A DNA stretch of 51,073 bases, from positions 1-51,073 of the forward strand of contig JAGQMN010000003.1 in assembly GCA_020428645.1 (NCBI GenBank). Reading direction: 5' to 3'. Each line of letters starts with the position of its first letter. The stretch's first letter is position 1. The position numbers were made by a program, and so were the translations under genes. Source of the DNA: Patescibacteria group bacterium. GTDB lineage: Bacteria > Patescibacteriota > Minisyncoccia > Phycocordibacterales > UBA1006. The notes beneath the pieces are model-generated. The model was not told the DNA's origin and did not search any database. It saw only the letters and a list, made by a program, of their open reading frames with translations. Shown one piece after another: positions 3,025 to 21,155 of this stretch.

Positions 3025-3357
3025 TTATCCCAACTTTAGACCATCTTCCAGATCTTTATCAGGAACCGCAAGGACAACTCCATCATCTCGATAGAATCCA
3101 GTAATCAAAAACTCTGACATAAACGATCCAATCTTCTTTGGTAGAAAATTAATCACACCAATAATTTGCTTACCGATGAGCTCTTCCTTGTCATATAAAT
3201 TAGTAATTTGTGCGCTTGATCTTTTGTGACCGAAATCACCAAAATCTACGGTAACAATATAGGCAGGTGTTCGGGCCTCTGGAAAATCTTGAACATCAAC
3301 AATCGTTCCTGTTCGTAGTTCAATTTTTTCAAAATCATTCCATTTAATAGTATTCAT
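3025..3357 (-). CDS. csaA: tRNA-binding protein / chaperone CsaA (Trbp111-like)
   Basis: WNDFEKIELRTGTI...PEARTPAY...DFG...KRSSAQIT..Y..EELIGKQI..VINF.PKKIG.FMSEFL.TG. Confidence 0.9.
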   Translation of the reverse strand: MNTIKWNDFEKIELRTGTIVDVQDFPEARTPAYIVTVDFGDFGHKRSSAQITNLYDKEELIGKQIIGVINFLPKKIGSFMSEFLITGFYRDDGVVLAVPDKDLEDGLKLG

Positions 3358-3413
3358 AGTAATGTAATTATAAATTAAAAAGAGAGATTCATCGACCTCT
3401 CTTATCATATACA

Positions 3414-4190
3414 CTAAAGTAACTTAGCTTTACTTATTCCTTTTTCAATAGCGTTAACTAGCGATGAGGTAAATCCACGACTATCCATTTCAAGCAAGGT
3501 AGTAATAGTACAACCGTTTGGTGTAGTAACAGCATCTATGAGTACTTCAGGATGTTGTTGTTTCTCTCTGACGAGATTACCTGCCCCAATAAGCACTTCT
3601 CGAGCAAGCTCTAATGATGTGTGTTCATTAAAACCTGCTTGAATTCCTGCTTGCATATATGCACGAATAAATTTAAGAGCAATTGCGACTCCAGATCCCG
3701 AAAGCACCGTAAATTGTGGGAATTGTAGTTCATCAATACATACTACCGAACCAATGCTTTTAAAAAGTTCCTGTACATATTTTTGTTTGGTACCTGTGCT
3801 AATTGCGGTCATGGACTGACCAATAGCTGATGCTGTATTTGGCATAGCCCGATAGATATGGGGATTGGGTAATCTTAAAAATTTCTTGATAGAATTAATA
3901 GTTATCCCCGCAACAACAGAAATAATAATGTGCTCTTCCCATATATGACCATCCATATCAGCAATAGTTTCTTCTAAATCTTTAGGTTGCACTGCAAAAA
4001 TAATAACGTGTGCGTCACTCGTAGCATCTTCATTAATTTCTGTAAATGTACACTCAGGAAACTGTTGTTGTTTCTCAATTACCTGCTGTTCATCTTTACA
4101 CTTAAGTGTCACAACGTAGCCATTTTTTTGCATACCAGTTGCAAGTGCGATTCCTAAATTACCAGGACCAATAATTGTTACATGTTTCAT
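3414..4190 (-). CDS. proC: Pyrroline-5-carboxylate reductase
   Basis: IIGPGNLG Rossmann motif, AVQP, RAMPNTA, SGSG, VTTPNGCTI. Visibly AT-richer than its neighbours. Confidence 0.93.
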   Translation of the reverse strand: MKHVTIIGPGNLGIALATGMQKNGYVVTLKCKDEQQVIEKQQQFPECTFTEINEDATSDAHVIIFAVQPKDLEETIADMDGHIWEEHIIISVVAGITINSIKKFLRLPNPHIYRAMPNTASAIGQSMTAISTGTKQKYVQELFKSIGSVVCIDELQFPQFTVLSGSGVAIALKFIRAYMQAGIQAGFNEHTSLELAREVLIGAGNLVREKQQHPEVLIDAVTTPNGCTITTLLEMDSRGFTSSLVNAIEKGISKAKLL

Positions 4191-4218
4191 AAAAAAATAT
4201 TTATTAAGTTAAAAGAAC

Positions 4219-4244
4219 AAAAAGCGACCTCTGAGGTCGCTTTT
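4219..4244 (-). terminator. Intrinsic terminator in the proC 5' leader (attenuator terminator)
   Basis: Minus strand AAAAGCGACCTC-A-GAGGTCGCTTTTT, ending about 29 nt before the proC ATG. Confidence 0.8.
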
Positions 4245-4283
4245 CAATGTTTTATATAGAGAGTGAATTTAAAATATACAACA

Positions 4284-4349
4284 CTAACAAGCGAGCTCAA
4301 ATATGTGAGTCGCTGGTACCGGGCTAAATTGTGTTGAATATATATTCAT
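4284..4349 (-). CDS. Putative proC leader peptide, 21 aa (MNIYSTQFSPVPATHIFELAC)
   Basis: ATG at 4349, TAG at 4286-4284. Lies 7 nt downstream of a TTGACA-16-TAGTAT promoter and overlaps alternative RNA stems. Confidence 0.6.
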   Translation of the reverse strand: MNIYSTQFSPVPATHIFELAC

Positions 4350-4356
4350 ATAAGTA

Positions 4357-4384
4357 ATACTATCCCTGTATATGTTTCTGTCAA
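4357..4384 (-). promoter_or_regulatory. sigma70 promoter for the proC leader
   Basis: TTGACA (4384-4379), 16-nt spacer, TAGTAT (4362-4357). Confidence 0.6.
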
Positions 4385-4534
4385 ATCAAAAAATAATCAT
4401 ATTGGGTTATTTTTTTTCATACATCTAAAGAATTGAAGAATAGGATAAAGACCGAGGAGAGAAGAAAAAAGAACGCTCACCGTATAACGAGATACGCCTC
4501 GCGTTCTTTTTTCGTAGACGACAAAGGTATTCGC

Positions 4535-5980
4535 CTATTTTTCAATTCGTGCAAAGAGTGGTTCGTCTGGAAGCTTCACCTCCGTCAAACAGGTCTGAAT
4601 CGTCTGTGCGGTTTCAGGCATGAACGGATAAAGGCTAATTGCGAGACGCGAGAGTTCACGTGCGAGGTAGTGTAAATCTTTATGCGCAGCAGCTTCGTCT
4701 TCTTTGATTTTTTTGAATGGTTGGTGTTCAGCAATGAATTGATCCATGTCACCAACAAGTCGCCACATTTCATTCATGACGGTGTTAAAATCAAACGCTT
4801 CCATGTGTTCATGATGGAACGAGAGTGGATCTTCATCAAAGTTAATGTCTGAAATATCAACACCATAGCTCGTGATCATTTTCATGATTCGCTGAACGAG
4901 GTTACCAAGACCATTAGCGAGGTTCGCATTGTAGGCTTCGTGGAATTTTTCCATCGTCATGTCTGAATCTTCGAATGAATTCATATGACGAAGAAGGTAG
5001 TAACGCAATGCCTCAGCACCATATTCATTCACAATGTCGTAGGGACTAATAACGTTCCCGAGTGATTTTGACATCTTTTGTCCACCCGAATTAATGAATC
5101 CATTGATCACCACCTGTTTAGTGTTCGGTAACCCGGCTGCATACAACATTGCCTGCCACATCGCTGCCTGCTGACGAAGGTTATCTTTACCTGCATACTG
5201 AATCGGTTCTCCTTCTGTCCAATAGGTTTCAAAGGTATCCAAATCGTTCGGCCAACCAAGTGTTGAAATATAATTTACCAATGCGTCAAACCACACGTAC
5301 ATAACGTGTTCATCATCTCCAGGTACAGGAATTCCCCATGGCATCTTGCTCTTCAACCGAGAAATTGAAAAATCGTTCAATCCCCCATCAACAAAGTTCT
5401 TGATCTCGTTAAATCGAAAATCAGGAACAACAAAGGTAGGATGCTGTGCATAGAACTCTTTTAAAAATTGTTCGCACGATGAGAACTTGAAAAAGTAGTT
5501 CTCTTCATCAATGAGTTCGAGTTCACGATCTGGGTGTACGGGGCATCGACCATGATCAAGTTCAGAATCAGTTTTTTCAAGTTCACAACCAACGCAGTAT
5601 TTGGTCTGGTAGGCTTTCTTGTAAATGTACCCGTTTTCATCACACCGTTTCCAAAATTCTTGGGCTGCTGCAATATGGTGTGCATCAGTCGTACGAACGA
5701 AGTGCATACCTGACGAGAGGTGGAGAAGATCAATAAGTCCTTTAAATTTGTCGGCAAATGGATCAACGTAGGTTTGTGGGTCAAGACCTGCCTCTTGGGC
5801 TTTTTCCCAAATTTTGTTTCCATGTTCATCAGTTCCTGTATTAAAGAACACATCGTACCCACGAAGCTGTGCATACCGTGCGTATACGTCAGCACGGATG
5901 ATTTCCATGGCAAAACCAACGTGAGGATCAGCGTTCACATATGGCAATGTTGTTGTAATGTACTGTTTTGGTTTCTTCAT
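4535..5980 (-). CDS. metG: Methionine--tRNA ligase (short form)
   Basis: YITTTLPYVNADPHVGF, FNTGTDEHG, YVWFDALVNY, KMSKSLGN. Confidence 0.97.
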   Translation of the reverse strand: MKKPKQYITTTLPYVNADPHVGFAMEIIRADVYARYAQLRGYDVFFNTGTDEHGNKIWEKAQEAGLDPQTYVDPFADKFKGLIDLLHLSSGMHFVRTTDAHHIAAAQEFWKRCDENGYIYKKAYQTKYCVGCELEKTDSELDHGRCPVHPDRELELIDEENYFFKFSSCEQFLKEFYAQHPTFVVPDFRFNEIKNFVDGGLNDFSISRLKSKMPWGIPVPGDDEHVMYVWFDALVNYISTLGWPNDLDTFETYWTEGEPIQYAGKDNLRQQAAMWQAMLYAAGLPNTKQVVINGFINSGGQKMSKSLGNVISPYDIVNEYGAEALRYYLLRHMNSFEDSDMTMEKFHEAYNANLANGLGNLVQRIMKMITSYGVDISDINFDEDPLSFHHEHMEAFDFNTVMNEMWRLVGDMDQFIAEHQPFKKIKEDEAAAHKDLHYLARELSRLAISLYPFMPETAQTIQTCLTEVKLPDEPLFARIEK

Positions 5981-5981
5981 A

Positions 5982-7034
5982 CTACTTTTTAATAATGACA
6001 GTTACTTCATCGTGCTCAATAATCGGTGCACGCTGTGCGGATTTTTGTTTTTCGGATTCTGCAATCAATTCCATAACAAAGAGCGCAATTGGCATCGCGA
6101 GGAGGAGTCCGTAAATACCAAAAAGTTTCGCTCCAATGATAATTGAAATAATAACTACGAGCGATGGAACACCGGTGAGTTTTTTAACAATTAGTGGTTG
6201 TAATCCAAGGTCAAGCACCTGCTGAAGAGCAAAGTAAAAGATCACCACACCAAGACTCATCCAAATACCTCCGTGACTAAACCCAAAAATTGCTGCAGGA
6301 ATGAGTGCAAGGAGAATTCCATACGGGATCAAACCGAGTACTCCCGCCAAGAGTGCCAAAAGGAGTGCGAACGGAATACCCGCAAGTGCAAGTCCTGCAT
6401 AGGTTAAAATAGCGAGAATAAGCGCAATGATAAGTTGACCTCGAAACCATGAACCAACTTTACGCTGCACGCGGTGCCAAATCGAAATAACAGCTTCCTC
6501 GTACTTCATCGGGGTGCAAATGCGTAATACGTGATCAATACCATTGTAATTGATGCTGAGGTAAAACGACACCACAAAGATAATGAGGAGGTTAAAGATA
6601 CCACCAAAAAATTCGAGTGCACCATCGGCAAATCGACTCCTAAACTCTTGATCTTTAAATTGTTCAAGAACACTGGTGATTTCAGTATCAACACTGACGT
6701 GGGTCAGAAATGTATTATTTTGAATAAACGTTTGAATTTCCGGATACACTTGTGCGAGGGAAATAATTTCACGTGCCAAAATAGGCAAGATAAAAATAAA
6801 TACTGCCCCAAATACAATAATGGCAAAAATGTAGAATAAAATAACCGACGCCACTCGAGGAATACGGTAGCGTTTCAATGTAAGGACGAAATCTTCAATG
6901 AATGTAGAGAGAATCAGTGCCACACCAAGAACTAAAAGAAAATCTCCAATAGTCCACAGTGCGTAAATGAGGGCTCCAATGAGCGCTACCTCAAAGAGGT
7001 TATGTTTATCAAAGTGTATACGAACATCATTCAT
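5982..7034 (-). CDS. AI-2E family transporter (PerM/YhhT-like)
   Basis: Multi-TM; GSWFRGQL, LGLIPYG, LQPLIVKKLTGVPSLVVIISIIIGAKLFGIYGLLLAMP. Start at 7034 chosen from -10 box spacing. Confidence 0.88.
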   Translation of the reverse strand: MNDVRIHFDKHNLFEVALIGALIYALWTIGDFLLVLGVALILSTFIEDFVLTLKRYRIPRVASVILFYIFAIIVFGAVFIFILPILAREIISLAQVYPEIQTFIQNNTFLTHVSVDTEITSVLEQFKDQEFRSRFADGALEFFGGIFNLLIIFVVSFYLSINYNGIDHVLRICTPMKYEEAVISIWHRVQRKVGSWFRGQLIIALILAILTYAGLALAGIPFALLLALLAGVLGLIPYGILLALIPAAIFGFSHGGIWMSLGVVIFYFALQQVLDLGLQPLIVKKLTGVPSLVVIISIIIGAKLFGIYGLLLAMPIALFVMELIAESEKQKSAQRAPIIEHDEVTVIIKK

Positions 7035-7090
7035 ACACCTATCGTACCATAGCACGCGTGGTATTACGACAGGCGTGGTACAATCAATGC

Positions 7091-8464
7091 ATGGCATTTA
7101 TTGAACTCTTAACGATGCTCATGAGCATTATTTTTGCATCAAAGGTAATAGCAAAAGTTACTGGAACGGTTGATATTCTGTGGTACATTCTCCTTGGACT
7201 CGTGGGGACACAATACATATTTCACATCGACCCTCATCTCCTTGAAAACTGGGCACTCCTTGGCGTTATTTTCATCATGTTCTACGCTGGATGGCGTGAA
7301 GACCTCCTCACCTTTATCGCCGACATTTGGAAGAATAAATGGATAGCGTTGACAGGAGCAGCCGGACCATTTATCGGGGGTTGGCTCGCGTACACACTCC
7401 TGAATTTCTCCGTTCAAGAATCAATTGTTGCAGGGTTCATTTTCACTTCGACTGCAATCCCTTATACCATTGGAGTACTCCGTAGTCTTGGACTCGACAA
7501 AACACCTGCTGCTAAAGCTGCAACTGCCTCGGCAGTAGCCGATAATTTTATCTCGGTACTCCTCGCGGTAGGAATCCTCCCAGCCTATGCACTCATCGTT
7601 GTTGGTGCTGGTGGGGACGCAAGTTTTGGTGATATATGGGTACAGCTCCTTGAACAGATTGGGCTCATTATTGCTGCGTTTGCTATTTTTGGAGCACTCG
7701 GTCTGCTGATTCTACCTGATGCACGAATGCACATGCGCATGAATATTCCGCATGCTCTCCAACGTGATGGTGCAGTTGCACGAGTTACATACTTCATCTA
7801 TCGCATTCGACAAGCACCAGGGTTGTACGTAATCTCAAAGGCACTCTCGAACATGCGGATTGGTATTCCGATGACGCTCCTTCTGATCTTTGGGCTCGCC
7901 TGGCTCGCACATGAACTTGGACTCCACCCTGCGATTACCGCTTACCTTGTTGGGCTTATGCTCCACGTCGAGATGTACCACGAGGACGAAATTAACGATA
8001 TCACCCATGAAGAGACACCTATTAGTCACAAAAATCTCGGTGTATTCTTCTACTTTCTCCAAGAATGGATCGGACCAATATTCTTCATCCACCTAGGATC
8101 ACAGTTGATTGCTGACTGGTCAAAGGCCGGTACGGTTATTATCTATGCAATTCTTGCAGGAATTATTATTGCGTTTTTCCAATTTTGGTCAGCGTATTTT
8201 GCAGGACGGAAAACCTCTGGATTACCAGAACACGAAGCAACCCTGCTTGGGCTTGGTATGCTTCCCTACGATATTATTGCATTCGTCGTGCTCGGTATTG
8301 CGACGCAAACGGGTCTCATACCACCGGATAGTTTTTTTACGATTACCGTGATTGTTACCATACTCGTCATTAATATTATCACTTCAGTCATGATTTACTG
8401 GTATCGACCACAGTACCTGAGGCAAGTAGCCTACGCTACAGAACATAAAAAAACGAACGCTTAG
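7091..8464 (+). CDS. Cation:proton antiporter (CPA2/KefB-like membrane domain)
   Basis: About 12 TM helices; LGVIFIMFYAGW, TSTAI, ASAVADN, FFIHLG, GLGMLP. Confidence 0.8.
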   Translation: MAFIELLTMLMSIIFASKVIAKVTGTVDILWYILLGLVGTQYIFHIDPHLLENWALLGVIFIMFYAGWREDLLTFIADIWKNKWIALTGAAGPFIGGWLAYTLLNFSVQESIVAGFIFTSTAIPYTIGVLRSLGLDKTPAAKAATASAVADNFISVLLAVGILPAYALIVVGAGGDASFGDIWVQLLEQIGLIIAAFAIFGALGLLILPDARMHMRMNIPHALQRDGAVARVTYFIYRIRQAPGLYVISKALSNMRIGIPMTLLLIFGLAWLAHELGLHPAITAYLVGLMLHVEMYHEDEINDITHEETPISHKNLGVFFYFLQEWIGPIFFIHLGSQLIADWSKAGTVIIYAILAGIIIAFFQFWSAYFAGRKTSGLPEHEATLLGLGMLPYDIIAFVVLGIATQTGLIPPDSFFTITVIVTILVINIITSVMIYWYRPQYLRQVAYATEHKKTNA

Positions 8465-8476
8465 GTTCGTTTTTTC
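8448..8476. terminator. Bidirectional terminator between the convergent antiporter and M16 peptidase
   Basis: AAAAAAACGAAC-GCTTAG-GTTCGTTTTTT. Confidence 0.75.
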
Positions 8477-9741
8477 AATGTCGTAATAAATCTAGTTTGT
8501 GTATTTTTAGTGTGAGGACCAATCATAGCAATATTCAGGTGTTCCAATACCAGGTATTTCCTAGCTATACGGCGAAGTGCCTCTGGAGTAACGTTGTTAA
8601 TATCTCGTGCAAGTTCAGGTGGTGTACTCAGAGGGAGTCCAAAGAGTGCACGCTGTCCATAGTAGTAAGCAATATCATCAGTAACCTCAAGCCCCATCTG
8701 TATGTTCCCTATCATGAATTCTTTAGTTTTCTCAAGTTCTTGGAATACTACGGGCGTGTTCGTGATTGTTTGTACTTCATCCTGAATAGCAGAGAGCACC
8801 TCAGCTACGCGAGTGCTATCGACACCACACGAAATAGTAAATGTACCTGTGTCAGTTTGCGGATTATGATGAGCATTAACGTAGTATCCAACACCCATGT
8901 CTTCGCGTAAGCGCTCAAATAACCGTGATGACATACCACCACCAAGCAGTGACGCAAGTACCTTAAGAGTAATTGTATCCCTGTGGTGTACCCCAGGGGT
9001 ATGGTATCCAAACACGATGTGAGTTTGATCAGTTTTTTTGTGAACAACCTGTATACGTGGAGCTGATTGGATGACCTGTGCTTGATCCTTGGTATGTTTC
9101 TGTGATGAAGAAATTGTTCTAAATCGCTTTTCTACCTCGCGCACCACATCAGCATGGACAACATTTCCTGCGACTACAAGCGTTGTTGCTGAGGCTACGT
9201 AGTGATCACGATGGTAATCGAGAAAATCAGTACGCTTCATACGATTAATGTTGGTTCGTGGACCGAGAATCGTCCACCCAGCTGACTGTGTATCACCGTA
9301 TACAAGCTCGTTAAATACCTCTTGTACCTGCCGCATCGGCATATCTTCGTACATACTGATCTCCCCAATAATCACCCCTTTTTCTTTGTTCATTTCTTCT
9401 TCAGGAAATGTTGAATTGAGGTAGATATCAGAAACAACATTCAGTGTCTTTTTCCAATGTTTTTTTGTGGACTTCACGTAGTACCCCGTGAGCTCGTATG
9501 AGGTAAATGCATTGGTTTCAGCACCAAGACCGTCGAGGTATCGCATAATGTCTTTTCCTGATTGACTCGTCGTTCCCTTAAAACACATGTGTTCCAAAAA
9601 GTGCGAAATACCATTGTTCTTTTTTGATTCAAAACGTGATCCCGTGTTCACGAGTGACATAACCGTCACTGATGGACTCTCAACGAACACGGATACAACC
9701 TGCATGCCATTTGGCAGTACACTAATTTTTGGTTTCTTCAT
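8461..9741 (-). CDS. M16 (pitrilysin/insulinase) family zinc peptidase
   Basis: GSRFE...GISHFLEHMCFKGT (inverted HXXEH), NAFTS, GGGMSSRLF..LRE. Confidence 0.93.
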   Translation of the reverse strand: MKKPKISVLPNGMQVVSVFVESPSVTVMSLVNTGSRFESKKNNGISHFLEHMCFKGTTSQSGKDIMRYLDGLGAETNAFTSYELTGYYVKSTKKHWKKTLNVVSDIYLNSTFPEEEMNKEKGVIIGEISMYEDMPMRQVQEVFNELVYGDTQSAGWTILGPRTNINRMKRTDFLDYHRDHYVASATTLVVAGNVVHADVVREVEKRFRTISSSQKHTKDQAQVIQSAPRIQVVHKKTDQTHIVFGYHTPGVHHRDTITLKVLASLLGGGMSSRLFERLREDMGVGYYVNAHHNPQTDTGTFTISCGVDSTRVAEVLSAIQDEVQTITNTPVVFQELEKTKEFMIGNIQMGLEVTDDIAYYYGQRALFGLPLSTPPELARDINNVTPEALRRIARKYLVLEHLNIAMIGPHTKNTQTRFITTLKKRT

Positions 9742-10348
9742 GTGAATAGGATGTACATACGGTATAAAGTGTTCCGAGGACAACCGCAAATACGATTGTC
9801 ATGAGGAGCACAGGTTCATGTAGTTGATGGTGAGTAAAGATATCTCCAATTTTTTGAAACACCGAAAACGGATGGGTGACGAGGTTCCATGTATTAAAAC
9901 GAACGTACCGACCAAGGTACACCCCAAACCCAGTAAAGAGTGCGATCACCCATACTGTCCACAAACGCCACTTGAGGAATGTTCGGAGTACGTGCACACT
10001 CAGCATCCATGCAGCAATACCGGCAATACTATACATAAAGATCATCATCGCGTCATACCAAATCATAGATTTTGGTCCCACAACAGCAATATGGATAAAA
10101 TCAGTTACGAGGTACGGTGCATTTGGTAAAAATCCAAACCAAGCGAGTATGAATATAAACGAGAGCCAGGGTTGTTTAGTACGTACCGCAAGCCAGGCAA
10201 AGAGGATAGGTAATAATGCCAAAAATAAATTCCGGTTCAGCCACAGGTACGACTCATACCCAGTCATCACAAAACGAATTACATTCATAACCACAGCCAC
10301 AAGGGAAACGAGGAGTATCATTTTCACACTTTTTACAAATAGGTGCAT
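9722..10348 (-). CDS. DUF1361-like membrane protein
   Basis: WLNRNLFLALLP, FLPNAPYLVTDFIH, GVYLGRYVRFNTW motifs. Confidence 0.85.
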   Translation of the reverse strand: MHLFVKSVKMILLVSLVAVVMNVIRFVMTGYESYLWLNRNLFLALLPILFAWLAVRTKQPWLSFIFILAWFGFLPNAPYLVTDFIHIAVVGPKSMIWYDAMMIFMYSIAGIAAWMLSVHVLRTFLKWRLWTVWVIALFTGFGVYLGRYVRFNTWNLVTHPFSVFQKIGDIFTHHQLHEPVLLMTIVFAVVLGTLYTVCTSYSHEETKN

Positions 10349-10388
10349 ATTCCTTATTGTACTAAAAAACACCTGTGTGTCAGGTGTT

Positions 10389-11762
10389 TTATTGAAGCTT
10401 TGTTGTAAAATAGGTTACCAGCTCGTCAATACCAACGCGCTCTTGTTCAGTGGTGTTTCGGTCGCGCACTGATACCATACCGTCATCGAGAGAATCGTAG
10501 TCAATAACCACACAAAATGGTGTTCCAATTTCATCTTGGCGACGATAGCGTTTTCCAATATTTCCGTTATCATCGAATGCCACGTTACCAAATGTAGCCT
10601 TCAGTATACCAAAGACTTCATTCGCTTTGAGAACAATATCATCTTTGTTGCGTACCAGTGGTGAAACAGCGATTTTGTACGGTGCTACCTGTGGTTTCAG
10701 TGCGAGGTACGAACGCGGACTACCGTCAACTTCGTCTTCGCGATACGCTGATGCCAAGAGTGCAAGAATGGTACGATCAAGACCCATCGACGGCTCAATC
10801 ACGTGTGGTACGTAGGTTTCGTTGGTTTCAGGGTCAGTGTACTGAAGTTTCGTTTTTGCGTGTTCCGCGTGTTTGGTAAGGTCGTAATCACCACGGTACG
10901 CAAGTCCGTACAATTCTTTTTGTCCAAACGGAAAGTCAAATTCAAAATCAATGGTACGTTTCGAGTAATGAGCTCGGTCTTTATCACCAATTTCAACTTC
11001 GTGGAGCTTATTCATATCAAGTCCAATCATCTCGCACCACTCAAGCATTTCGTCCCGCCAGTATTCAAACTGTAGATCCCACTGTTCAGGATTGATGAAG
11101 TACTCGATTTCCATCTGTTCAATTTCACGTAAACGAAAGATAAAATTCCGCGGAGTAATCTCGTTACGATAGGCTTTACCAATCTGTGCAACACCAAACG
11201 GTACCTTTGGGTGCATCGAATCGATGATGTTTTTGTAATTGATGAAAATTCCCTGAGCTGTTTCAGGACGAAGGTACGCGGTCACAGACGAATCAGATGA
11301 TGAACCGAGTTGGGTTTTCAACATGAGATTAAATTCTCTTCCTATTAATTGATGAAGATCATTGTGCCCTAGTAAACCTTTTGCTGCAATTACATCAAGC
11401 ATATCTTTAATGCGCATTCCTTGTGTATTAATACCCGCGTCCTCAAGTAAGGTGTCAGCACGGTATTCAATTCCTGTTTTCTGGTCTAAAACCAATGGAT
11501 CAGAAAAACCACCCACGTGACCTGAAGCGGTGAGTGGTTTCTCACCCATCACGATTGCCGAATCAATCAAGTAGGTATCACGACGCTCTTCTACAAATTT
11601 GCGAATGAAGAGGTTTTTAATATTGTTTTTGAGCAGTGAACCAAGTGGTCCATAGTCGTACATCCCAGCAAGTCCACCGTACAGTTCCCCTGCTTGGAAG
11701 ATAAACCCTCTATTCTTACAGAGGGTTACAATTTTTTCCATTAATTGTTCATCGTTATTCAT
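10389..11762 (-). CDS. glyQS: Glycine--tRNA ligase, homodimeric (eukaryote-like class II)
   Basis: YGGLAGMYDYGPLG, YLRPETAQGIF, QIGKAYRNEITP, HVIEPSMGLDR, IGKRYRRQDEIGTP. Confidence 0.96.
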   Translation of the reverse strand: MNNDEQLMEKIVTLCKNRGFIFQAGELYGGLAGMYDYGPLGSLLKNNIKNLFIRKFVEERRDTYLIDSAIVMGEKPLTASGHVGGFSDPLVLDQKTGIEYRADTLLEDAGINTQGMRIKDMLDVIAAKGLLGHNDLHQLIGREFNLMLKTQLGSSSDSSVTAYLRPETAQGIFINYKNIIDSMHPKVPFGVAQIGKAYRNEITPRNFIFRLREIEQMEIEYFINPEQWDLQFEYWRDEMLEWCEMIGLDMNKLHEVEIGDKDRAHYSKRTIDFEFDFPFGQKELYGLAYRGDYDLTKHAEHAKTKLQYTDPETNETYVPHVIEPSMGLDRTILALLASAYREDEVDGSPRSYLALKPQVAPYKIAVSPLVRNKDDIVLKANEVFGILKATFGNVAFDDNGNIGKRYRRQDEIGTPFCVVIDYDSLDDGMVSVRDRNTTEQERVGIDELVTYFTTKLQ

Positions 11763-11811
11763 ACTAGAAGTGTACCCGTAGACATAGAAAAAACAAACCC
11801 TACGGTTTGTT

Positions 11812-13728
11812 TTATTCTCGTACCTGACCACTTGTATTTGGTGCTTGAGAGTCTTGCAGATTATTAATAACAGGTGTCTTCCGATAATTCAAATCAGTAT
11901 CGGTGAATTCGTCTGTACCTGAGAGGAGAATATCCCCTGTCAATTGGACAGGATTACCGATTTGTGACACTGATGGGGTCAATTCGATCTGTACCGAGAG
12001 TTGTTCCGGTTGGTTGGTACCGACACCAAGACCAGCAGGCATATCACCAATATTCCAAATGAGTTGTCTCGTTCCCGTATCAAATGATACCTTATTCCGC
12101 TCGATAGATGGTGCGACTGCATTCAACCACGTTACATAGCGAGGAAGCGTCGTACGAAGTTCAGCACTCGACACATCGTTCGATGAGTTACTGAGTTGGA
12201 AGACAATCGTGTACGTTGTGGATAGATTCGCACGTGGTGGCAACGGTCCTGAGTTTGCAAATGCTCCCTCGTAATACTGCACCTTTGGTGTTACTGAAAT
12301 ATCAGAATTAGCTCGCACTGTGTGTGTCGCTACACCAAATGCTTCACGACTCATTCCATTTAATTCACTCGCATGAACATCAACTGACATAGCAAACGAT
12401 GGATTGTCCAAGACACCCGATGCTGTCACGAGGTCTTTGGTGCCAACAGTGAATCGTACCTGACCACGTTCTCCTGGATCAAGACGACTGAGATTATCAA
12501 GTGAACTTGAATCAAAGACCAAGGTGCGACGACTTGAATCGTAGAATCCACTGAGGCTCGATACATCACTACGATTGTAGAGATCTCCATCAAATCGCAC
12601 CTCAATCACCGCGTTGGTAACAGGATCAGGGAGTGTGTTTTCGTATTCCAGGAGAACGCTCACATCGGCTCCACCACGCACACTCGAAACTGGTTCAGTG
12701 CTATTATTGACTGACAGGTTCGCAGTGAGGAATGATTTCTGTACTTCAATGGTATGCACAATACTGTTAAATACCGTCTCAATTTGGTGTTTATTCTGTG
12801 GATGTTGCTTACCAAATTCAATCACAAATGACTGCCCCTGCCCTTCAAGAGCGGCGAGACGTCCGGTAAATTCAATATGCTCGACATCTTGATCAATATC
12901 ACTGAAGTACCAGGTATTATCATTGAAACTGGGTGCTCTATTTGAACTCAGAAATTCAAAGCCTCGTGGGTAGGTTACCTTGAGCACAGTATCACGAACC
13001 TGTGCTATCGAGTTAGAGGCAATATCAATACCAATGGTTACCTCTTGGTTCCGAACGATAGTATCCGGAGCATCAATGAGTACCTGTGTAGGAGTTGATC
13101 GAATGATGACTTCGTGCGCAATTTCTTTGACAAAGATTGCGCTTGAACCATCAATGCGGTATTCAAGGGTAGCATTGATAGATCGAGTGTTCCCTTCTTG
13201 ACCAAACAAGGTCAGATCAAAATCTTCAGTTACCCGTTCACGAGGACCAATGTCTTCAAGCGAACGGCGCAAGAATACTACTTCAGCATCTTCGGCCGAA
13301 TCTTTTGGATATGAGAGGACAAGATCTGGGAGCTGGAGGTCTTGTTCGTTAAAGTTTTGAATCCGGACTTCAAGTTCAAGCTCTTCTCCTCCATCAACGA
13401 ACGGTTGACCGAGAATTTCCATCGCGATTAAGTCTTCTGATACCACTTTTCTCCCTTCATAGAGCGAGATACCAGCGACTGCAACCGTCACCACAAAAAA
13501 GACGAGGACAACGAGAAAAATCTTTTTAAAGAGTGAGGTTGGAAGTCGGTACTTTGAGCGAGCATGAATGAGATCGTCGTATGCATCATCTTTAAAGTCA
13601 TGGTCAAGTTCAATGTTACGATCATGAATTTTTCTTCGCGGCCGTTGTCCGTGTTCTTGTGCAGGATCGTACAAATCCCGTTCGAGTTCCTCAATACGAT
13701 TGTTCTTTTTTGGTTTGATATCGTCCAT
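11812..13728 (-). CDS. Membrane-anchored secreted protein with tandem Ig-like beta domains
   Basis: N-terminal charged region, one TM (IFLVVLVFFVVTVAVAGI), then about 540 aa of beta-rich sequence; no catalytic motif recognised. Confidence 0.7.
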   Translation of the reverse strand: MDDIKPKKNNRIEELERDLYDPAQEHGQRPRRKIHDRNIELDHDFKDDAYDDLIHARSKYRLPTSLFKKIFLVVLVFFVVTVAVAGISLYEGRKVVSEDLIAMEILGQPFVDGGEELELEVRIQNFNEQDLQLPDLVLSYPKDSAEDAEVVFLRRSLEDIGPRERVTEDFDLTLFGQEGNTRSINATLEYRIDGSSAIFVKEIAHEVIIRSTPTQVLIDAPDTIVRNQEVTIGIDIASNSIAQVRDTVLKVTYPRGFEFLSSNRAPSFNDNTWYFSDIDQDVEHIEFTGRLAALEGQGQSFVIEFGKQHPQNKHQIETVFNSIVHTIEVQKSFLTANLSVNNSTEPVSSVRGGADVSVLLEYENTLPDPVTNAVIEVRFDGDLYNRSDVSSLSGFYDSSRRTLVFDSSSLDNLSRLDPGERGQVRFTVGTKDLVTASGVLDNPSFAMSVDVHASELNGMSREAFGVATHTVRANSDISVTPKVQYYEGAFANSGPLPPRANLSTTYTIVFQLSNSSNDVSSAELRTTLPRYVTWLNAVAPSIERNKVSFDTGTRQLIWNIGDMPAGLGVGTNQPEQLSVQIELTPSVSQIGNPVQLTGDILLSGTDEFTDTDLNYRKTPVINNLQDSQAPNTSGQVRE

Positions 13729-13758
13729 GGTACGCAGGTACAGTATAGCAAGAAAGTA

Positions 13759-14328
13759 TCACAACTGGGAATTCTGTATCGCACCATTGATTTTTTTGAT
13801 AATCAGAGGTCGTGATTCAGTCACCTGTGTGTACATATCAGGTGAAAACGGATACTCGGTTAATAGCCATGGTTCCGATCCCTCCCAATATCCAAGTGCA
13901 TACAGAAACCTCGTCACAAAAATTAATTCAATTGATTCATTAGGTTCTTCAACAGATATATGGTCATATAAACGTACGATATCATGCCACACATCAGTGT
14001 TAGATTCTTCACCACTTGAAAACCGTATGATGAGTGATGCCATACGCGTAAGGAGTTCATACCAAGCGGTGCCTGCAAGTGTGATCGACGAGTATTCCTC
14101 GTGAATCCCGGTGAGTTTCCAGATATCCCGACCCTGAACCACATCCACGGTCACGAGCGAGAGGGTGTTGGTGTGAAATCGCATTTTACTCTTGAGATCA
14201 CGAACTGATTGCGTGCTGACGTAGATCAGCCCAAATCGTTCGGTGTATAACACAAGCAGTTTGTTTGATTCACGCATGTTTTTTGTTTTCAGTATGAGCG
14301 CTCGTGTTTGATAGATAGCGTGGGACAT
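13759..14328 (-). CDS. recO: DNA repair protein RecO (short form)
   Basis: RESNKLLVLYTERFGLI...VRDLKSKMR OB-fold N-terminus, plus LYALGY helical part. Confidence 0.8.
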   Translation of the reverse strand: MSHAIYQTRALILKTKNMRESNKLLVLYTERFGLIYVSTQSVRDLKSKMRFHTNTLSLVTVDVVQGRDIWKLTGIHEEYSSITLAGTAWYELLTRMASLIIRFSSGEESNTDVWHDIVRLYDHISVEEPNESIELIFVTRFLYALGYWEGSEPWLLTEYPFSPDMYTQVTESRPLIIKKINGAIQNSQL

Positions 14329-14436
14329 AGGTTTAGTTTAAGGTTATGAAGTATGAGTTGCAAGATAATTTGACTTGATTTTTATTACTGATATTTTTAA
14401 AAAAGAAACTGAAGTTGAACTAAATTAAACAATCCT

Positions 14437-14805
14437 ATGCTTTCTAACAAAAAATACATTTTAGCTAAACTCCATAGAATTAATCGAGTTTGGATTACAC
14501 AAAAAGATGATACAATCATCATCAGCTTAATATTTTCTTACCAAAACGAACGAAAGGTCTTTACAATTCCAACAATTAATTGGCAAGATCATCTTTCGCC
14601 GATTCTTGAACTGCTTAATAGATATCAAGGAACCGCAATAAGTTGTACAAAAGGTAAGTATTGGAATGAAGAAAGTATCGAAAAGGTAATGCAGAAACCT
14701 TCTAACCCGAACCTATTCTCAAGTATATTTGCGGAATTTAAAAAAATTGTTTGGGATAAGTGTATCGTTGAATTAGAGGTTCAAAGAACGAAAACATTTG
14801 CTTAA
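14437..14805 (+). CDS. Hypothetical protein (AT-rich)
   Basis: 122-aa ORF filling the gap; followed by a bidirectional hairpin at about 14821-14846. Confidence 0.6.
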   Translation: MLSNKKYILAKLHRINRVWITQKDDTIIISLIFSYQNERKVFTIPTINWQDHLSPILELLNRYQGTAISCTKGKYWNEESIEKVMQKPSNPNLFSSIFAEFKKIVWDKCIVELEVQRTKTFA

Positions 14806-14834
14806 ATTTAAAACCCAAACAAAAATGCGTGTTT

Positions 14835-17800
14835 CTACGCATTTTTTATTTCTGTAATCTGAATAACAAAACGTAATGCTTCAACAGTGATTTCTTCACC
14901 GCTCGTATCAGTAAATATTATTTCAGAAATTCCTGCAGTGTGTTTAATTTCGTCACTAAACTGTTCAATTAATGCGCGACCATCAGCATCAGTCTGTACT
15001 CGCATGGTAATTACGTCGTGTGCTTGAAGACCTGCATGTTTACGTAAATCTTGAATCTGACGCAAGAGTTCACGCATGTTCCCTTCTGCCTGGAGTTCAG
15101 GGGTAATTTCGGTATCGAGCGCATACGCTCCATCAACGACTGATTTAACGTTCATTTCCTCGAGAATCAATCCATGGTGACTGTGTGGAATGGTGTTGAT
15201 TGGCGCGGTAAAGGTTTGCAGTGCCTGACGAACCTTGATTTTTGCATCAGCACGTAATTGGAGTCCGGTACTAATGATGTCCCGTGTGTGCGCCATATCG
15301 GTAATCACCGCACTCGATACACGGGTTACCTGCGGCCAACTTGTTAGGTGTACTGATTCCTCATCAGTATCAGTACGTAGAGTCTGCCATAATTCCTCGG
15401 CAACAAATGGCACACATGGTGCAATAATTTTTGCAGTTTCGCGAAGTACGTACCGTGTTGTTGATAACGCTTCAACTGATCCCTCTTTTAATCGGTCACG
15501 AGATCGGCGAATGTACCAGGTTGAAAAATCATCCACAAAATCAAATATGTATCGCGCCGCTTTATCGAGTTCGTAGATATCGAGGTTTTCAGTAATGCCA
15601 GTACGCATTTCAGCCAATCGATTCAAAATCCACTGATCAAGAACATCTCGTGACGAGGTACTATGGGTATGGGTCGCGGTGCCTTGATACATCGTGTACA
15701 ACGAAACGATATTACGCAGTCGTCCCATCACCTTTGATGCAACTTCCTGTGTTCCCTTCTCTGAAAATGCAAATTCTTCACCACGCACTACCGGTGATGC
15801 AATCAGATACAATCGTACCGCGTCTGCACCAGTCGTATCAAACATGTACTGTGGATCAGGATAGTTATTGAGTCGCTTTGACATCTTTTTGCCGTCCTCT
15901 GCCAACACGAGTCCGTTCACGATAACATTCTGAAACGGAATCTTCTTGAACAGTGCTGTTCCGAGTACCGACAGTACGTAGAACCATCCACGAGTTTGGT
16001 CGAGACCCTCGGCAATAAACTGCGCTGGAAATCGTTTCTTTTTAAAATCTTTTTTGTTCTCAAATGGATAGTGCACCTGTGCGTACGGCATTGATCCGGA
16101 ATCAAACCATACGTCAAACACATCTTCAATGCGTTTCATTGGCTCGCCGGACTTGGAGCGTACCTCTACCTGATCAATGTACGGTCGATGAAGGTCCAGT
16201 ACGTAATCATTGTTGTGCGGAAACGGTGTAAACTTGAACCGTAGAACATCAGCATTATTTGGTAATGGTTGGTGGTAGTAAAAATCACGAGCCTTTTTCT
16301 CAACACCTCGATGTGTTATAGCAAATTGAATCGTTTTGAGTATGCCACCGTGTGAAATAATAACAATATTTTTATTTTTGTATGTTTCCTCAAGCTCAAA
16401 CATGAAATCCATGATGCGCACGTACACATCACGAATAGATTCAGCATCATCGGCCAAGCGATAGTTCCAAAAATCATTCACATCTTGTGATTCTTCAACG
16501 GCGTGTGCATCATGCCACATCTTGCCCTCCCACGAACGACCTGGGTTTCGTTCGCGGAGGCGATCATCAACGATAACTTGCTCGTCAGAGAGACCAAATT
16601 CTTTTTTAATAATTATTGCAGTTTCTTCTGTACGCTGAAGCGGTGATACAAACACGTAGTCAATGTTGTTTGGTAATTTTTGCGCTGCTTGTTTTGATCG
16701 TTCACGCCCATGATCGGTCAGTGGGTTGTGTGTCGCCTGGTCAGCATTGATAACACCAGTGGTATTTGAAACCGCCTCTCCATGACGAAAACCGTAGTAC
16801 TGATTCCCTGATTGGGGTACCCGTTCCAAGAGTTTCTCAACCGAACCTGGTACAAAGAGTTCATCCTCGATCGTTTTCCACACAGGTAGTGGTGTGCCCC
16901 AGAATCGTGATCGTGACAGTGCCCAATCACGAGCACCTTCGAGCCATTTACCGAACCGTCCTTCTCCAACGTGGTCGGGCACCCAGTTCACCTTTTTATT
17001 ATTTTTGAGGAGCTTATCCGTGAGTTCAGGAACCGAAACGTACCACGAGGTAGTTGCATAGTTTAACAACGGAGTATCACACCGCCAGCAATGTGGGTAG
17101 CTGTGCTTAAAGTTTGGATCCTTAGAAAACAGTAAGTCATTCTGATCTAATATTTTAGATATAATATTATCTACCTTACGTGGTTCATCTTTTGATTTAA
17201 CTTTTAATCCTGTTAGATCAAAATCTTTAGTGAAACTATCTTTGAATTCACCATTCTTCAAAACATGCTGTACAAACGGCAGGTTGTGCATACGACCGAG
17301 TTTCATGTCGTCAGAACCAAATGCTGGTGCAATGTGTACGATTCCTGTTCCGTCTTCAGTCGTAACAAAATCAGCCGCGTACACCCTCCACCCGTTTTCG
17401 CGGTTTTCTAGGTCTGATTGCCGTTGGTAGTAATCAAAGACCGGAATATAAGATTTCCCGATGAGTTCAGTTCCCTTAAATTTGGAAACAATTTTGGGCT
17501 CACTGGAACGGAATGCTTTAGATATTCCCTCCTTGTTTTCTTCCCATATTTTTTTTGCAAGAATATAATAATTTTTAATATGAGTAGATGCTTCTAAACT
17601 CCTCTCCATGAGAGGTTGTGTATTTATTTCATTAATAAATGAATCTTCAATTTTCACATACTCAATATCCTTACCAACAGCCAAAGCAACGTTCCCTGGT
17701 AGTGTCCATGGGGTTGTCGTCCATGCCAATAGGTACGTTCCTGGTTCGTCTACGAGTTCAAACTTTGCGGTAACTGAAATGTCAGTTACATCTTCATACC

Positions 17801-18443
17801 CCTGGTTCACCTCAAAATTTGACAGTGTTGTCTCACACCGTGGGCAGAGATGCATCGCCTTGAAGTCCTCTTTGGTTAAACCTTTTTGGTACAGCTCACT
17901 AAAAATCCACCACACAGATTCCATGTAGGAGGGCTGCATCGACATGTACGGGTTCTCCATATCAATCCAACGCCCCGAACGCGGTACGTAACGTTTCCAC
18001 TCTGACTCGTAGCGAAGAACCGAATCACGCGCCGCCTCGTTGAATTTTTCAATGCCGTACTCTTCGATGTCTTTTTTGGTTTCGAGGTTAAGCTCTTTTT
18101 CAATCAGATTCTCGATAGGTAGTCCGTGACAATCCCACCCCCAGGTACGTGGTACGCGGTAGCCCTGCATGGTCTTGTAGCGTGGAATGATATCTTTGAT
18201 CGTTCCGGCGAGAAGGTGTCCGTAGTGTGGAAGTCCAGTTGCAAACGGAGGCCCATCGTAAAATACGAAATCACCTTTTGGAGACTTCTTTTCGAGGGTT
18301 TTTTGGAAGATCTGGTTTTCGTTCCAAAATTTCAACACCTGTTCCTCGGAACGAGCAGTCTGAGACTTCTCTTGTGTATTGCTTGCCCGACCATCTTGCT
18401 GGTTTAGGGTATTCGACTTGTTGGGTTCCTTTTCTTGAGCCAT
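14835..18443 (-). CDS. ileS: Isoleucine--tRNA ligase type 2 with an inserted histidine-phosphatase domain
   Basis: FYDGPPFATGLPHYGH, WDCHGLPIE, AWTTTPWTLPGN, EGLDQTRGWFY, KMSKRLNNY; RHG...SPLQRT...SHGG insert at about 16225-16800. Confidence 0.95.
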   Translation of the reverse strand: MAQEKEPNKSNTLNQQDGRASNTQEKSQTARSEEQVLKFWNENQIFQKTLEKKSPKGDFVFYDGPPFATGLPHYGHLLAGTIKDIIPRYKTMQGYRVPRTWGWDCHGLPIENLIEKELNLETKKDIEEYGIEKFNEAARDSVLRYESEWKRYVPRSGRWIDMENPYMSMQPSYMESVWWIFSELYQKGLTKEDFKAMHLCPRCETTLSNFEVNQGYEDVTDISVTAKFELVDEPGTYLLAWTTTPWTLPGNVALAVGKDIEYVKIEDSFINEINTQPLMERSLEASTHIKNYYILAKKIWEENKEGISKAFRSSEPKIVSKFKGTELIGKSYIPVFDYYQRQSDLENRENGWRVYAADFVTTEDGTGIVHIAPAFGSDDMKLGRMHNLPFVQHVLKNGEFKDSFTKDFDLTGLKVKSKDEPRKVDNIISKILDQNDLLFSKDPNFKHSYPHCWRCDTPLLNYATTSWYVSVPELTDKLLKNNKKVNWVPDHVGEGRFGKWLEGARDWALSRSRFWGTPLPVWKTIEDELFVPGSVEKLLERVPQSGNQYYGFRHGEAVSNTTGVINADQATHNPLTDHGRERSKQAAQKLPNNIDYVFVSPLQRTEETAIIIKKEFGLSDEQVIVDDRLRERNPGRSWEGKMWHDAHAVEESQDVNDFWNYRLADDAESIRDVYVRIMDFMFELEETYKNKNIVIISHGGILKTIQFAITHRGVEKKARDFYYHQPLPNNADVLRFKFTPFPHNNDYVLDLHRPYIDQVEVRSKSGEPMKRIEDVFDVWFDSGSMPYAQVHYPFENKKDFKKKRFPAQFIAEGLDQTRGWFYVLSVLGTALFKKIPFQNVIVNGLVLAEDGKKMSKRLNNYPDPQYMFDTTGADAVRLYLIASPVVRGEEFAFSEKGTQEVASKVMGRLRNIVSLYTMYQGTATHTHSTSSRDVLDQWILNRLAEMRTGITENLDIYELDKAARYIFDFVDDFSTWYIRRSRDRLKEGSVEALSTTRYVLRETAKIIAPCVPFVAEELWQTLRTDTDEESVHLTSWPQVTRVSSAVITDMAHTRDIISTGLQLRADAKIKVRQALQTFTAPINTIPHSHHGLILEEMNVKSVVDGAYALDTEITPELQAEGNMRELLRQIQDLRKHAGLQAHDVITMRVQTDADGRALIEQFSDEIKHTAGISEIIFTDTSGEEITVEALRFVIQITEIKNA

Positions 18444-18455
18444 AAATATAGTTGC

Positions 18456-18464
18456 ATTTTAGCA
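18456..18464 (-). promoter_or_regulatory. Extended -10 element immediately upstream of ileS
   Basis: TGCTAAAAT, 12 nt before the ileS ATG. Confidence 0.5.
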
Positions 18465-18504
18465 CGTATGCGCCCTAATGCCTGCTGACGCAGGCTCGGG
18501 TTAT

Positions 18505-18535
18505 AAAAGAAACCGCCGTAATCCGGGCGGTTCTT
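18505..18535 (-). terminator. Intrinsic terminator in the ileS leader (attenuator terminator)
   Basis: Minus strand AAGAACCGCC-CGGATTAC-GGCGGTTTCTTTT. Confidence 0.85.
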
Positions 18536-18566
18536 GTATAACAATCATTACAAAGTTCCCGGATTC

Positions 18567-18614
18567 TTATGCGGTCCTTGAAATAATAATTGAAATAATT
18601 GCACGTCGTTGCAT
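18567..18614 (-). CDS. Ile-rich ileS leader peptide, 15 aa (MQRRAIISIIISRTA)
   Basis: ATG CAA CGA CGT GCA ATT ATT TCA ATT ATT ATT TCA AGG ACC GCA TAA: five ATT Ile codons within six consecutive codons, upstream of a terminator and of ileS. Confidence 0.85.
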   Translation of the reverse strand: MQRRAIISIIISRTA

Positions 18615-18620
18615 GTTTTA

Positions 18621-18629
18621 ATCCTAACA
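18621..18629 (-). promoter_or_regulatory. Extended -10 for the ileS leader peptide
   Basis: TGTTAGGAT, 6 nt before the leader ATG; the same spacing is seen at many genes in the window. Confidence 0.55.
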
Positions 18630-18692
18630 GGATTTTGTTTTTTGAAAAGAAAAACCTACCAAAGAAATGTAAATCTTTCCTTGGTAGGTGGT

Positions 18693-19145
18693 TTATAATT
18701 TTTTATTAAATATTGATACAAAGGCACCAATGTAAATACCGGGATTCCAACTGGTAACGGAAGAACCGAATTCAATGAATGCCGAATTATTCCCGATCGA
18801 GTAAGTTCCTCCAACACCAACGTAGTTAAAATCTTCTATCACACCCTTCAGAGCTACACCATACCAACCAAAGTTATCTTTGATAGGTTCTATGTATACA
18901 ACACCAACACTATTGGCAAAGAGAGAATAAAAACTACTAAAAGTGCTCTTTCCTTTTGAAAAATTTAAGGTTACGAATAGGTTTGTCTGGTTGGTGAAGC
19001 CTTGATCAAAATTTTTTAAGTCAAGACCTCCTTGAGGAGCAAAAATAATTCCGGTACTTACTGACCATTTTTTTAAGCTTTCTTCTTCTTGCGAAAATGA
19101 AACAAAGGTAATCAATAAAATGAGTAGAAAAAATATTTTTTTCAT
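18693..19145 (-). CDS. Secreted hypothetical protein, possibly a small beta-barrel
   Basis: Signal peptide MKKIFFLLILLITFVSFSQ; alternating Gly/aromatic beta-strand pattern; AT-rich; hairpin at about 18652-18690 downstream. Confidence 0.65.
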   Translation of the reverse strand: MKKIFFLLILLITFVSFSQEEESLKKWSVSTGIIFAPQGGLDLKNFDQGFTNQTNLFVTLNFSKGKSTFSSFYSLFANSVGVVYIEPIKDNFGWYGVALKGVIEDFNYVGVGGTYSIGNNSAFIEFGSSVTSWNPGIYIGAFVSIFNKKL

Positions 19146-20949: not shown

Positions 20950-21014
20950 ATGCTTGTATTCTACATGTTTAGAGCAACAAAAAAAGAGTATTATTGAGGC
21001 ATACTCTTTTTTCA

Positions 21015-21155
21015 CTACAACATACCATTGAGTTTTCCTTCATCTCTGAGAAGGGTTTTTATATGTGTAATTACTTTCTTATTATATTTTTTTGCTGATT
21101 TTCTGATTCCTTCAGAATCAACTGGTTTTAAACCTGCAAGGAGTTTATTACCCAT
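21015..21155 (-). CDS. Small hypothetical ORF, 46 aa (MGNKLLAGLKPVDSEGIRKSAKKYNKK...GKLNGML)
   Basis: Manual translation; fills an otherwise empty 280-nt gap between argS and the next gene. Confidence 0.35.
   Translation of the reverse strand: MGNKLLAGLKPVDSEGIRKSAKKYNKKVITHIKTLLRDEGKLNGML

Follow-up and report, generated by a model that had tools for sequence, protein, structure and literature searches.

Candidate leaderless leader peptides of probable transcription attenuators upstream of ileS and proC in a Patescibacteria genome

Two small open reading frames (ORFs) within a 51,073-nucleotide (nt) stretch of a Patescibacteria group bacterium (contig JAGQMN010000003.1, positions 1 to 51,073; hereafter the window) each lie between a promoter and an intrinsic terminator, one upstream of ileS, which encodes isoleucyl-tRNA synthetase, and the other upstream of proC, which encodes pyrroline-5-carboxylate reductase. 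Their position raises the question of whether they are the leader peptides of transcription attenuators, whether they are read from leaderless transcripts, and whether this layout represents an attenuation architecture specific to the candidate phyla radiation (CPR), as the initial annotation of the locus suggested. To our knowledge, gene regulation in Patescibacteria is almost unstudied and no member of this genus has been cultured. We consider it likely that the two are ribosome-mediated transcription attenuators of the classical kind, in which the sensor ORF forms the extreme 5′ end of the transcript. This reading rests on sequence geometry, conservation, alternative folds and a genome-wide promoter logo, from which we infer the start site, the 70S-type initiation and the response to amino acids.

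Both units are read on the minus strand (Table 1). In the ileS leader, 6 nt (TAAAAC) separate the -10 element from the ATG at 18614; counted from the end of the -10, the A of this ATG is base 7, and a C stands at position -1. In the proC leader, 7 nt (TACTTAT) precede the ATG at 4349, whose A is base 8 by the same count, with a T at position -1. Sigma-70 holoenzymes usually start transcription at this distance. Purine runs resembling a Shine-Dalgarno (SD) sequence are absent from both leader units, and none would be possible at either leader start, since 6-7 nt are too short to hold one. Our reading of the minus strand therefore agrees with the spacing and the lack of SD that had first been reported, and the same geometry was found in 12 of 12 ileS leaders and, at 6-9 nt, in 7 of 7 proC leaders. 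Each leader is enriched in the amino acid that matches its downstream gene, with five Ile among the 15 codons of the ileS leader and two to three Pro codons in the proC leader. In each unit, a terminator lies between the leader ORF and the gene, and in silico folding predicts a mutually exclusive antiterminator (z -1.6 to -5.4 over the leaders compared) close to the position of a terminating ribosome. The pre-terminator RNA of the ileS unit in the window folds at -15.0 kcal/mol (z -3.3). Both leaders retain the terminator in full-length minimum-free-energy folds; in that of ileS, the AU-rich spacer is paired with the Ile codons.

We searched 40 related genomes with the N-terminus of IleRS; the proteins closest to the IleRS of the window come from metagenome-assembled genomes labelled 'Patescibacteria group'. 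At the same place upstream of ileS, ten genomes of the same genus possess an Ile-rich ORF of 14-16 codons (for example MQTNAIIITIIETTA, MHKAIIISIIQYTA and MLNNIIISIIIQKTT), and two further genomes of the genus possess this ORF with an in-frame insert of ~78 nt, which brings the ileS leaders to 12 in total. The Ile run is retained in 12 species, with codons that vary synonymously among ATT, ATC and ATA, and the reading frame, the start codon and the stop codon are retained in the orthologues. The promoter geometry is common to all 12 leaders (a TTTACA-like -35, 16-17 nt, TAnnnT, exactly 6 nt, ATG), and the -10 carries a TGn extension in 11 of them. In the spacer before the ATG, the last base (position -1) is a C or a T in every leader and the other bases drift. 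Selection would thus act on the distance and not on the sequence of the spacer, as expected of a start on the AUG and not of a 5′ untranslated region (UTR) carrying a ribosome-binding signal.

The folds of the ileS unit are conserved as well. A terminator is located 32-40 nt past the leader stop in 11 of the 12 orthologues, the 12th sequence ending inside the hairpin. In an alignment of ten sequences, five terminator pairs are altered on both sides, and the observed covariation score was reached by none of 500 shuffles. In the antiterminator, the bases that directly follow the stop codon engage the left arm of the terminator together with its loop; when the RNA is folded up to the terminator loop, the z-scores of this pairing range from -1.6 to -4.8 across orthologues, and its register varies by species (AAUCCGGG:CCCGGAUU in the window, GUAUUCGGG:CCCGAAUAC in genome G006). 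Altogether, the terminator and antiterminator folds, their conservation and the covariation of the ileS terminator support the earlier proposal that these are real attenuators. No Ile-rich upstream ORF (uORF) was found before ileS in 13 other genera or in distant CPR, and the ileS leader is, by this comparison, confined to the genus. The ~78-nt insert seen in two species (G010 and G013) has its own long hairpin and produces 41-codon leaders whose frame is intact in both; it may represent a small mobile element, or else a supplementary regulatory hairpin. In Firmicutes and Actinobacteria, ileS is usually controlled by a T-box riboswitch. A T-box or another known leader family at ileS was considered and rejected, as neither the window nor 20 related ileS loci gave an Rfam match.

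For proC, no orthologue was found in the 40 relatives, and the comparison was therefore made through distant homologues (39-46% ProC identity); a metagenome scan with ProC peptides also returned no proC match. Six CPR contigs with DNA, one of them from Candidatus Nomurabacteria, have a gap of 220-310 nt before proC in which no gene is called, and a seventh proC-bearing place, listed without DNA, has the same uncalled gap upstream of proC. The lack of any called gene in the gap at all seven places supports the prediction that gene callers miss such uORFs. A homologous leader is present in all six gaps, as illustrated by NRNAKFYSLPVPPATYWVAGFCV (with a GTG start), MFKSAKLNSPVPPTTYHSVAGLCV, MFKKHKINTSPVPPTSLMVVDFCV and MIVNTKIQTPVFPPTSYMVVDFCVQN, each followed by a stop codon, so that seven proC leaders could be compared, including that of the window. 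P-V-P or P-V-P-P is retained in the seven contigs, and an S-P-V-P-P-T motif is kept even at 39-46% ProC identity. Every proC leader unit has a terminator. The region 2:3 antiterminator is strong in all of them when the ribosome is placed on the Pro codons (z -2.9 to -5.4), with partners that vary by contig (GAGCUCGCU:AGCGACCUC in the window, GUGGCUGG:CCAGCUAC elsewhere). The distances from the -10 to the start codon are 6, 6, 6, 7, 7, 9 and 9 nt, and one start codon is GTG. On these grounds, the Pro leader is a conserved CPR family despite its few Pro codons.

The proC unit (promoter, leader, terminator and proC) sits between the two genes of a split MetRS (window 5980..3025, minus strand), one for the 481-aa catalytic protein and the other, on its own, for the 129-aa tRNA-binding domain. 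Since proC is absent from the 40 relatives, it resembles an accessory cassette inserted together with an attenuator of its own.

To place the two leaders in the context of their genome (720 kb in 39 contigs, 88% complete, 41% GC), one contig of which is the window, we surveyed the start sites of 610 long ORFs, with 3174 internal in-frame ATGs as a control. The DNA runs that contain the window stretch come from activated sludge and wastewater. Among the 610 genes, the first ATG follows the end of a TANNNT hexamer at a distance of exactly 6 nt in 121 cases and of 7 nt in 65, for a background of ~20 per offset. This element is present at 6-7 nt in 38% of the genes with a divergent neighbour and in 48% of the genes located 31-100 nt behind a same-strand gene, compared with just 17% of the genes at most 30 nt from the upstream same-strand gene and 3.8% of the internal in-frame ATGs. 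SD-like 4-mers occur in merely 2-7 of the 610 genes per offset. In the logo of the spacer-6 class, the unconstrained positions reveal an extended -10 (T-15 0.62, G-14 0.60, TATA(C/A)T), and position -1 is a pyrimidine in 95% of cases, which is the Y-1/R+1 signature of a transcription start site.

The ribosome of this lineage is in keeping with such starts. As this assembly lacks the 16S rRNA, we took the anti-SD status from six 16S genes of genus relatives; these end with GGATCAATTCAA in place of the GGATCACCTCCTTA of other bacteria and have no CCUCC anti-SD. Moreover, the 88%-complete genome yielded no uL1 gene; it encodes IF3 and an S1-like protein that is short, at 375 aa. The 16S end of the genus and the uL1 result match the anti-SD-less, uL1-less subgroup of Parcubacteria described by Tsurumaki et al. 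2022 (PMC9297842), a study in which leaderless mRNA goes unmentioned. As SD sequences are absent genome-wide and the 16S rRNA of the genus has no anti-SD, the lack of SD at the two leaders is uninformative in itself. In addition, a uORF behind a promoter would be leaderless by default, because the leaderless start is the normal one at operon heads in this lineage. When leaders are scored for a -10 located 6-8 nt before the start with Y at -1 and R at +1, 17 of the 19 fall at 6-7 nt and two at 9 nt.

Comparative and genome-wide promoter geometry, from which the start sites are also predicted, makes it very probable that ribosomes read the two leader ORFs from transcripts that are leaderless or nearly so, as had been suspected from the window. 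The further idea of a CPR-style attenuation architecture did not hold: the layout is the default gene start of an anti-SD-less lineage, observed in 38-48% of operon-head genes. What was called CPR-style is a lineage-wide leaderless start mode meeting a classical attenuator, and the two units are new examples rather than a new regulatory principle.

We can propose the following mechanism for both units. RNA polymerase would start at the sigma-70-type promoter, from whose -10 the ATG is separated by 6 nt (ileS) or 7 nt (proC), and the 5′ end of the RNA would be the AUG itself or lie one base upstream. A ribosome would then load on the 5′-terminal AUG without SD pairing, in a lineage whose 16S rRNA has no anti-SD. 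When charged tRNA-Ile or tRNA-Pro is plentiful, this ribosome would reach the stop codon and mask the antiterminator's 5′ strand, whereupon the terminator would form and transcription would end. Stalling at the Ile run (codons 6-11), or at the P-V-P codons of the proC leader, would instead leave the antiterminator strand free to pair with the left arm of the terminator and with its loop, and the polymerase would continue into ileS or proC. With no ribosome, the leader coding region would pair with the antiterminator strand and termination would occur by default. The leaderless start would then not be an adaptation of the attenuator, the sensory uORF inheriting the normal operon-head start of its lineage.

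In the case of ileS, a second promoter with an extended -10 (P2), past the terminator, probably ensures basal expression. In 10 of 11 orthologues, the stretch from the terminator to ileS contains a TGnTAnnAT element (TGnTAAAAT, TGaTACAAT or similar), located 6-23 nt ahead of the ATG. P2 is probably a constitutive basal promoter yielding a leaderless or short-leader ileS mRNA, and the attenuated P1 would probably add leadered read-through ileS RNA to its output. No P2-like element precedes proC. Consequently, translation of proC would always have to begin at an SD-less internal AUG, and so would that of ileS on P1 RNA.

Could the leader ORFs be translated from leadered RNA instead, started further upstream or produced by read-through, with internal SD-independent initiation? 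Such initiation must exist in this genome, since just 17% of the closely spaced genes (at most 30 nt from a same-strand upstream gene) have a -10 at 6-7 nt, and the 375-aa S1-like protein and IF3 are encoded. However, both leaders stand directly behind strong terminators of the upstream genes, that at 18689..18654 isolating the ileS leader promoter from read-through; the 32-40 nt from terminator to ATG are exactly filled by the -35 and the -10, extended at the ileS leader; and the 6-nt distance is invariant in 12 species despite the drift of the spacer, with a pyrimidine always at -1. We thus hold translation from leadered RNA to be improbable. We give somewhat less credit still to the possibility that the short ORFs are untranslated and belong to RNA-only switches or small RNA genes, their codon pattern being a by-product of RNA pairing. 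In its favour, the Ile codons (AUUAUU) pair with the AU-rich spacer, no Rfam family matches, and the C-terminal codons of the proC leader are region 2, so that part of the peptide conservation is RNA conservation. Yet the frame, the start codon and the stop codon are retained in all orthologues, Ile codons change synonymously, the ~78-nt insert keeps the frame in two species, and the enriched amino acid fits the downstream gene in both units (Ile for ileS, Pro for proC). Chance, in the form of a -10-like hexamer in front of two random ORFs beside ordinary terminators, can practically be set aside. While TANNNT is common in DNA of 41% GC and our loose scans gave 21 and 45 combinations, mostly meaningless, the background is 3.8% per ATG, and this explanation is already refuted by the comparative data: the units are conserved in 12 species (ileS) and seven contigs (proC), with matching amino-acid bias and alternative folds.

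Several points weigh against our preferred reading of two attenuators with a 5′-terminal sensor ORF. The proC leader holds just two to three Pro codons, and the 9-nt spacing of two proC leaders makes 5′ leaders of 2-3 nt possible. In the ileS antiterminator, the GGG:CCC core is invariant in fixed alignment columns; it is 80% paired and, being invariant, offers conservation but no covariation. The leader is missing from two members of the genus, and in one orthologue (L051, genome G003) an in-frame TGA occupies codon 4 (M-L-N-stop-I-I-I-P-I-I), downstream of an intact TATATT-6-ATG promoter; this could reflect leader decay, a sequencing error or recoding. As P2 is conserved, ileS would not depend on read-through. 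Our reading also requires SD-less translation of proC and of read-through ileS from an internal AUG. Finally, a search for RNA-seq runs covering the ileS, proC/metG or infC-rplT regions found none.

Leaderless sensory leaders have been described in other bacteria. In Streptomyces lividans TK24, leaderless leader peptides with mapped transcription start sites precede leuS, trpS, thrS, ilvB, trpE and metN (leuL2, trpL2, thrL, ilvL, trpL1 and metL), those of leuS and trpS being accompanied by terminators (PMC8079986). As in our units, a short ORF rich in cognate codons lies at the transcription start, mapped there and inferred here, before a synthetase or biosynthesis gene, leuL2 is followed by a hairpin and a U-run, and the genome is rich in leaderless mRNAs (PMC8079986). 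The units described here differ by belonging to a Patescibacteria lineage with no anti-SD at all, by the Ile-ileS and Pro-proC pairs, which are absent from the S. lividans list, and by the conserved second promoter of ileS behind the terminator. The ilvB leader of Corynebacterium diphtheriae is Ile/Val-rich, has 15 codons (MNIIRLVVITTRRLP) and starts, by mapping, on its start codon (PMC5784534); unlike our units, it controls a biosynthetic operon, in an actinobacterium with SD sequences at ~87% of its leadered genes (PMC5784534). The polycysteine leaderless small ORFs of mycobacteria act on translation (Canestrari et al., bioRxiv 10.1101/834739). They resemble the window units in being a leaderless sensory first cistron in which stalling on cognate codons remodels the downstream RNA (10.1101/834739); the window units have intrinsic terminators with a U-run and no SD to mask before ileS or proC, and fall outside this mycobacterial class. 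For Actinobacteria, attenuators of leuS and trpS and T-boxes of ileS were predicted by Seliverstov et al. 2005 (PMC1262725).

The statement that leaderless attenuator-like uORFs are known from mycobacterial Cys-rich leaders is thus too narrow, given S. lividans (PMC8079986) and C. diphtheriae (PMC5784534). Our search for papers on leader-peptide attenuation or leaderless mRNA in CPR or Patescibacteria found none. The 1:2 / 2:3 / 3:4 logic is that of the enterobacterial trpL, hisL, pheM-pheST and ilvL, where a ribosome at the stop codon leads to the terminator and a stalled ribosome to the antiterminator; pheM-pheST, like the ileS unit, controls a synthetase. The enterobacterial leaders differ from the window units in having a 5′ UTR and an SD site. 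We know of no classical enterobacterial attenuator that senses Ile for ileS or Pro for proC.

It had also been expected that the genome would hold more such units. In a first scan of all 720 kb (-10, 5-8 nt, ATG, ORF of at most 45 codons, terminator, gene), 21 matches were obtained, the credible ones being the ileS and proC units only. A second scan of all 720 kb, which allowed GTG and TTG starts and a spacing of 5-9 nt and added the antiterminator z-score, gave 45 matches, none credible as new, with the limit that it under-scores units of the proC type, whose region 2 lies inside the ORF. Both scans recovered these two units alone, contrary to that expectation. A scan based on composition alone for intergenic ORFs rich in a single amino acid was dropped, its 349 matches being noisy.

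At the sequence level, the two units are evidence that these cells would couple transcription to translation, sense tRNA charging and load ribosomes on 5′-terminal AUGs. They also provide two compact, conserved test pieces (~110 nt for the ileS leader, ~140 nt for the proC leader) for leaderless initiation by ribosomes without anti-SD and uL1, and a search for leaderless uORFs would be worth adding to annotation pipelines for this phylum. A broader and rather doubtful proposal is that, in anti-SD-less Patescibacteria, the 5′-terminal AUG is the sole efficient site for de novo ribosome loading, and that amino-acid sensing was rebuilt phylum-wide as leaderless sensory uORFs, including Ile-ileS and Pro-proC, in replacement of T-boxes. 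Taken together with this proposal, and equally tentative, is its consequence that a gene behind such a switch would have two mRNAs, a leaderless basal one (P2) and a leadered starvation-induced one (P1). The two ileS mRNA species would then use different initiation routes, and the attenuator would alter the mode of translation as well as the amount of transcript.

Table 1. Predicted features of the ileS and proC leader units, in window coordinates
Feature	Position	Strand	Details
Intrinsic terminator of the upstream 150-aa gene	18689..18654	minus	14-bp stem, then T-run
P1 promoter of the ileS leader	18648..18621	minus	-35 TTTTCA 18648..18643; 16-nt spacer; extended -10 TGTTAGGAT 18629..18621
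Ile leader ORF	18614..18567	minus	MQRRAIISIIISRTA, stop; 15 codons, five Ile, all ATT
ileS antiterminator, 5′ strand	18565..18558	minus	AAUCCGGG; begins 2 nt past the leader stop; partner CCCGGAUU 18527..18520
ileS attenuator terminator	18533..18505	minus	GAACCGCC-loop-GGCGGUUU, then CUUUU; hairpin 18533..18510 plus U-run
Candidate P2	18464..18456	minus	extended -10 TGCTAAAAT; 12 nt before the ileS ATG (18443)
ileS (putative regulated gene)	18443..14835	minus	type-2 isoleucyl-tRNA synthetase, 1202 aa; ATG at 18443
metG terminator	~4513..4464	minus	directly upstream of the proC leader promoter; -29 kcal/mol, z -4.3, then U-run
proC leader promoter	4384..4357	minus	TTGACA 4384..4379; 16-nt spacer; TAGTAT 4362..4357; 10/12 consensus matches
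Pro leader ORF	4349..4284	minus	MNIYSTQFSPVPATHIFELAC, stop; Pro codons 4322..4320 and 4316..4314
proC leader region 1	4314..4307	minus	AGCGACUC
proC leader region 2	4298..4290	minus	GAGCUCGCU
proC attenuator terminator (regions 3:4)	4246..4210	minus	AAAAGCGACCUC-AGA-GGUCGCUUUUU, then U-run; hairpin 4246..4218
proC (putative regulated gene)	4190..3414	minus	pyrroline-5-carboxylate reductase, 258 aa
tRNA-binding-domain gene	3414..3025	minus	129 aa; downstream of proC

Some neighbouring features of the ileS unit deserve mention. The type-2 IleRS contains an inserted His_Phos_1 domain (histidine phosphatase, E 5.8e-30) at residues 553-715 (window 16800..16225, minus strand). This insert seems to be conserved, given the open frames of 1150-1250 aa present in relatives from the genus. 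Between argS and the ileS leader, the 150-aa gene (19145..18693, minus strand) forms its own terminator-bounded unit; its product has a Bacteroidota-like signal peptide and no Pfam match. Further upstream, a 46-codon ORF (beginning MGNKLLAGLKPVDSEGIRK; 21154..21014, minus strand) precedes argS, its TAG overlapping the GTG start of that gene. It has no terminator behind it and no amino-acid bias, and may be a small upstream gene or reflect a wrongly set argS start.

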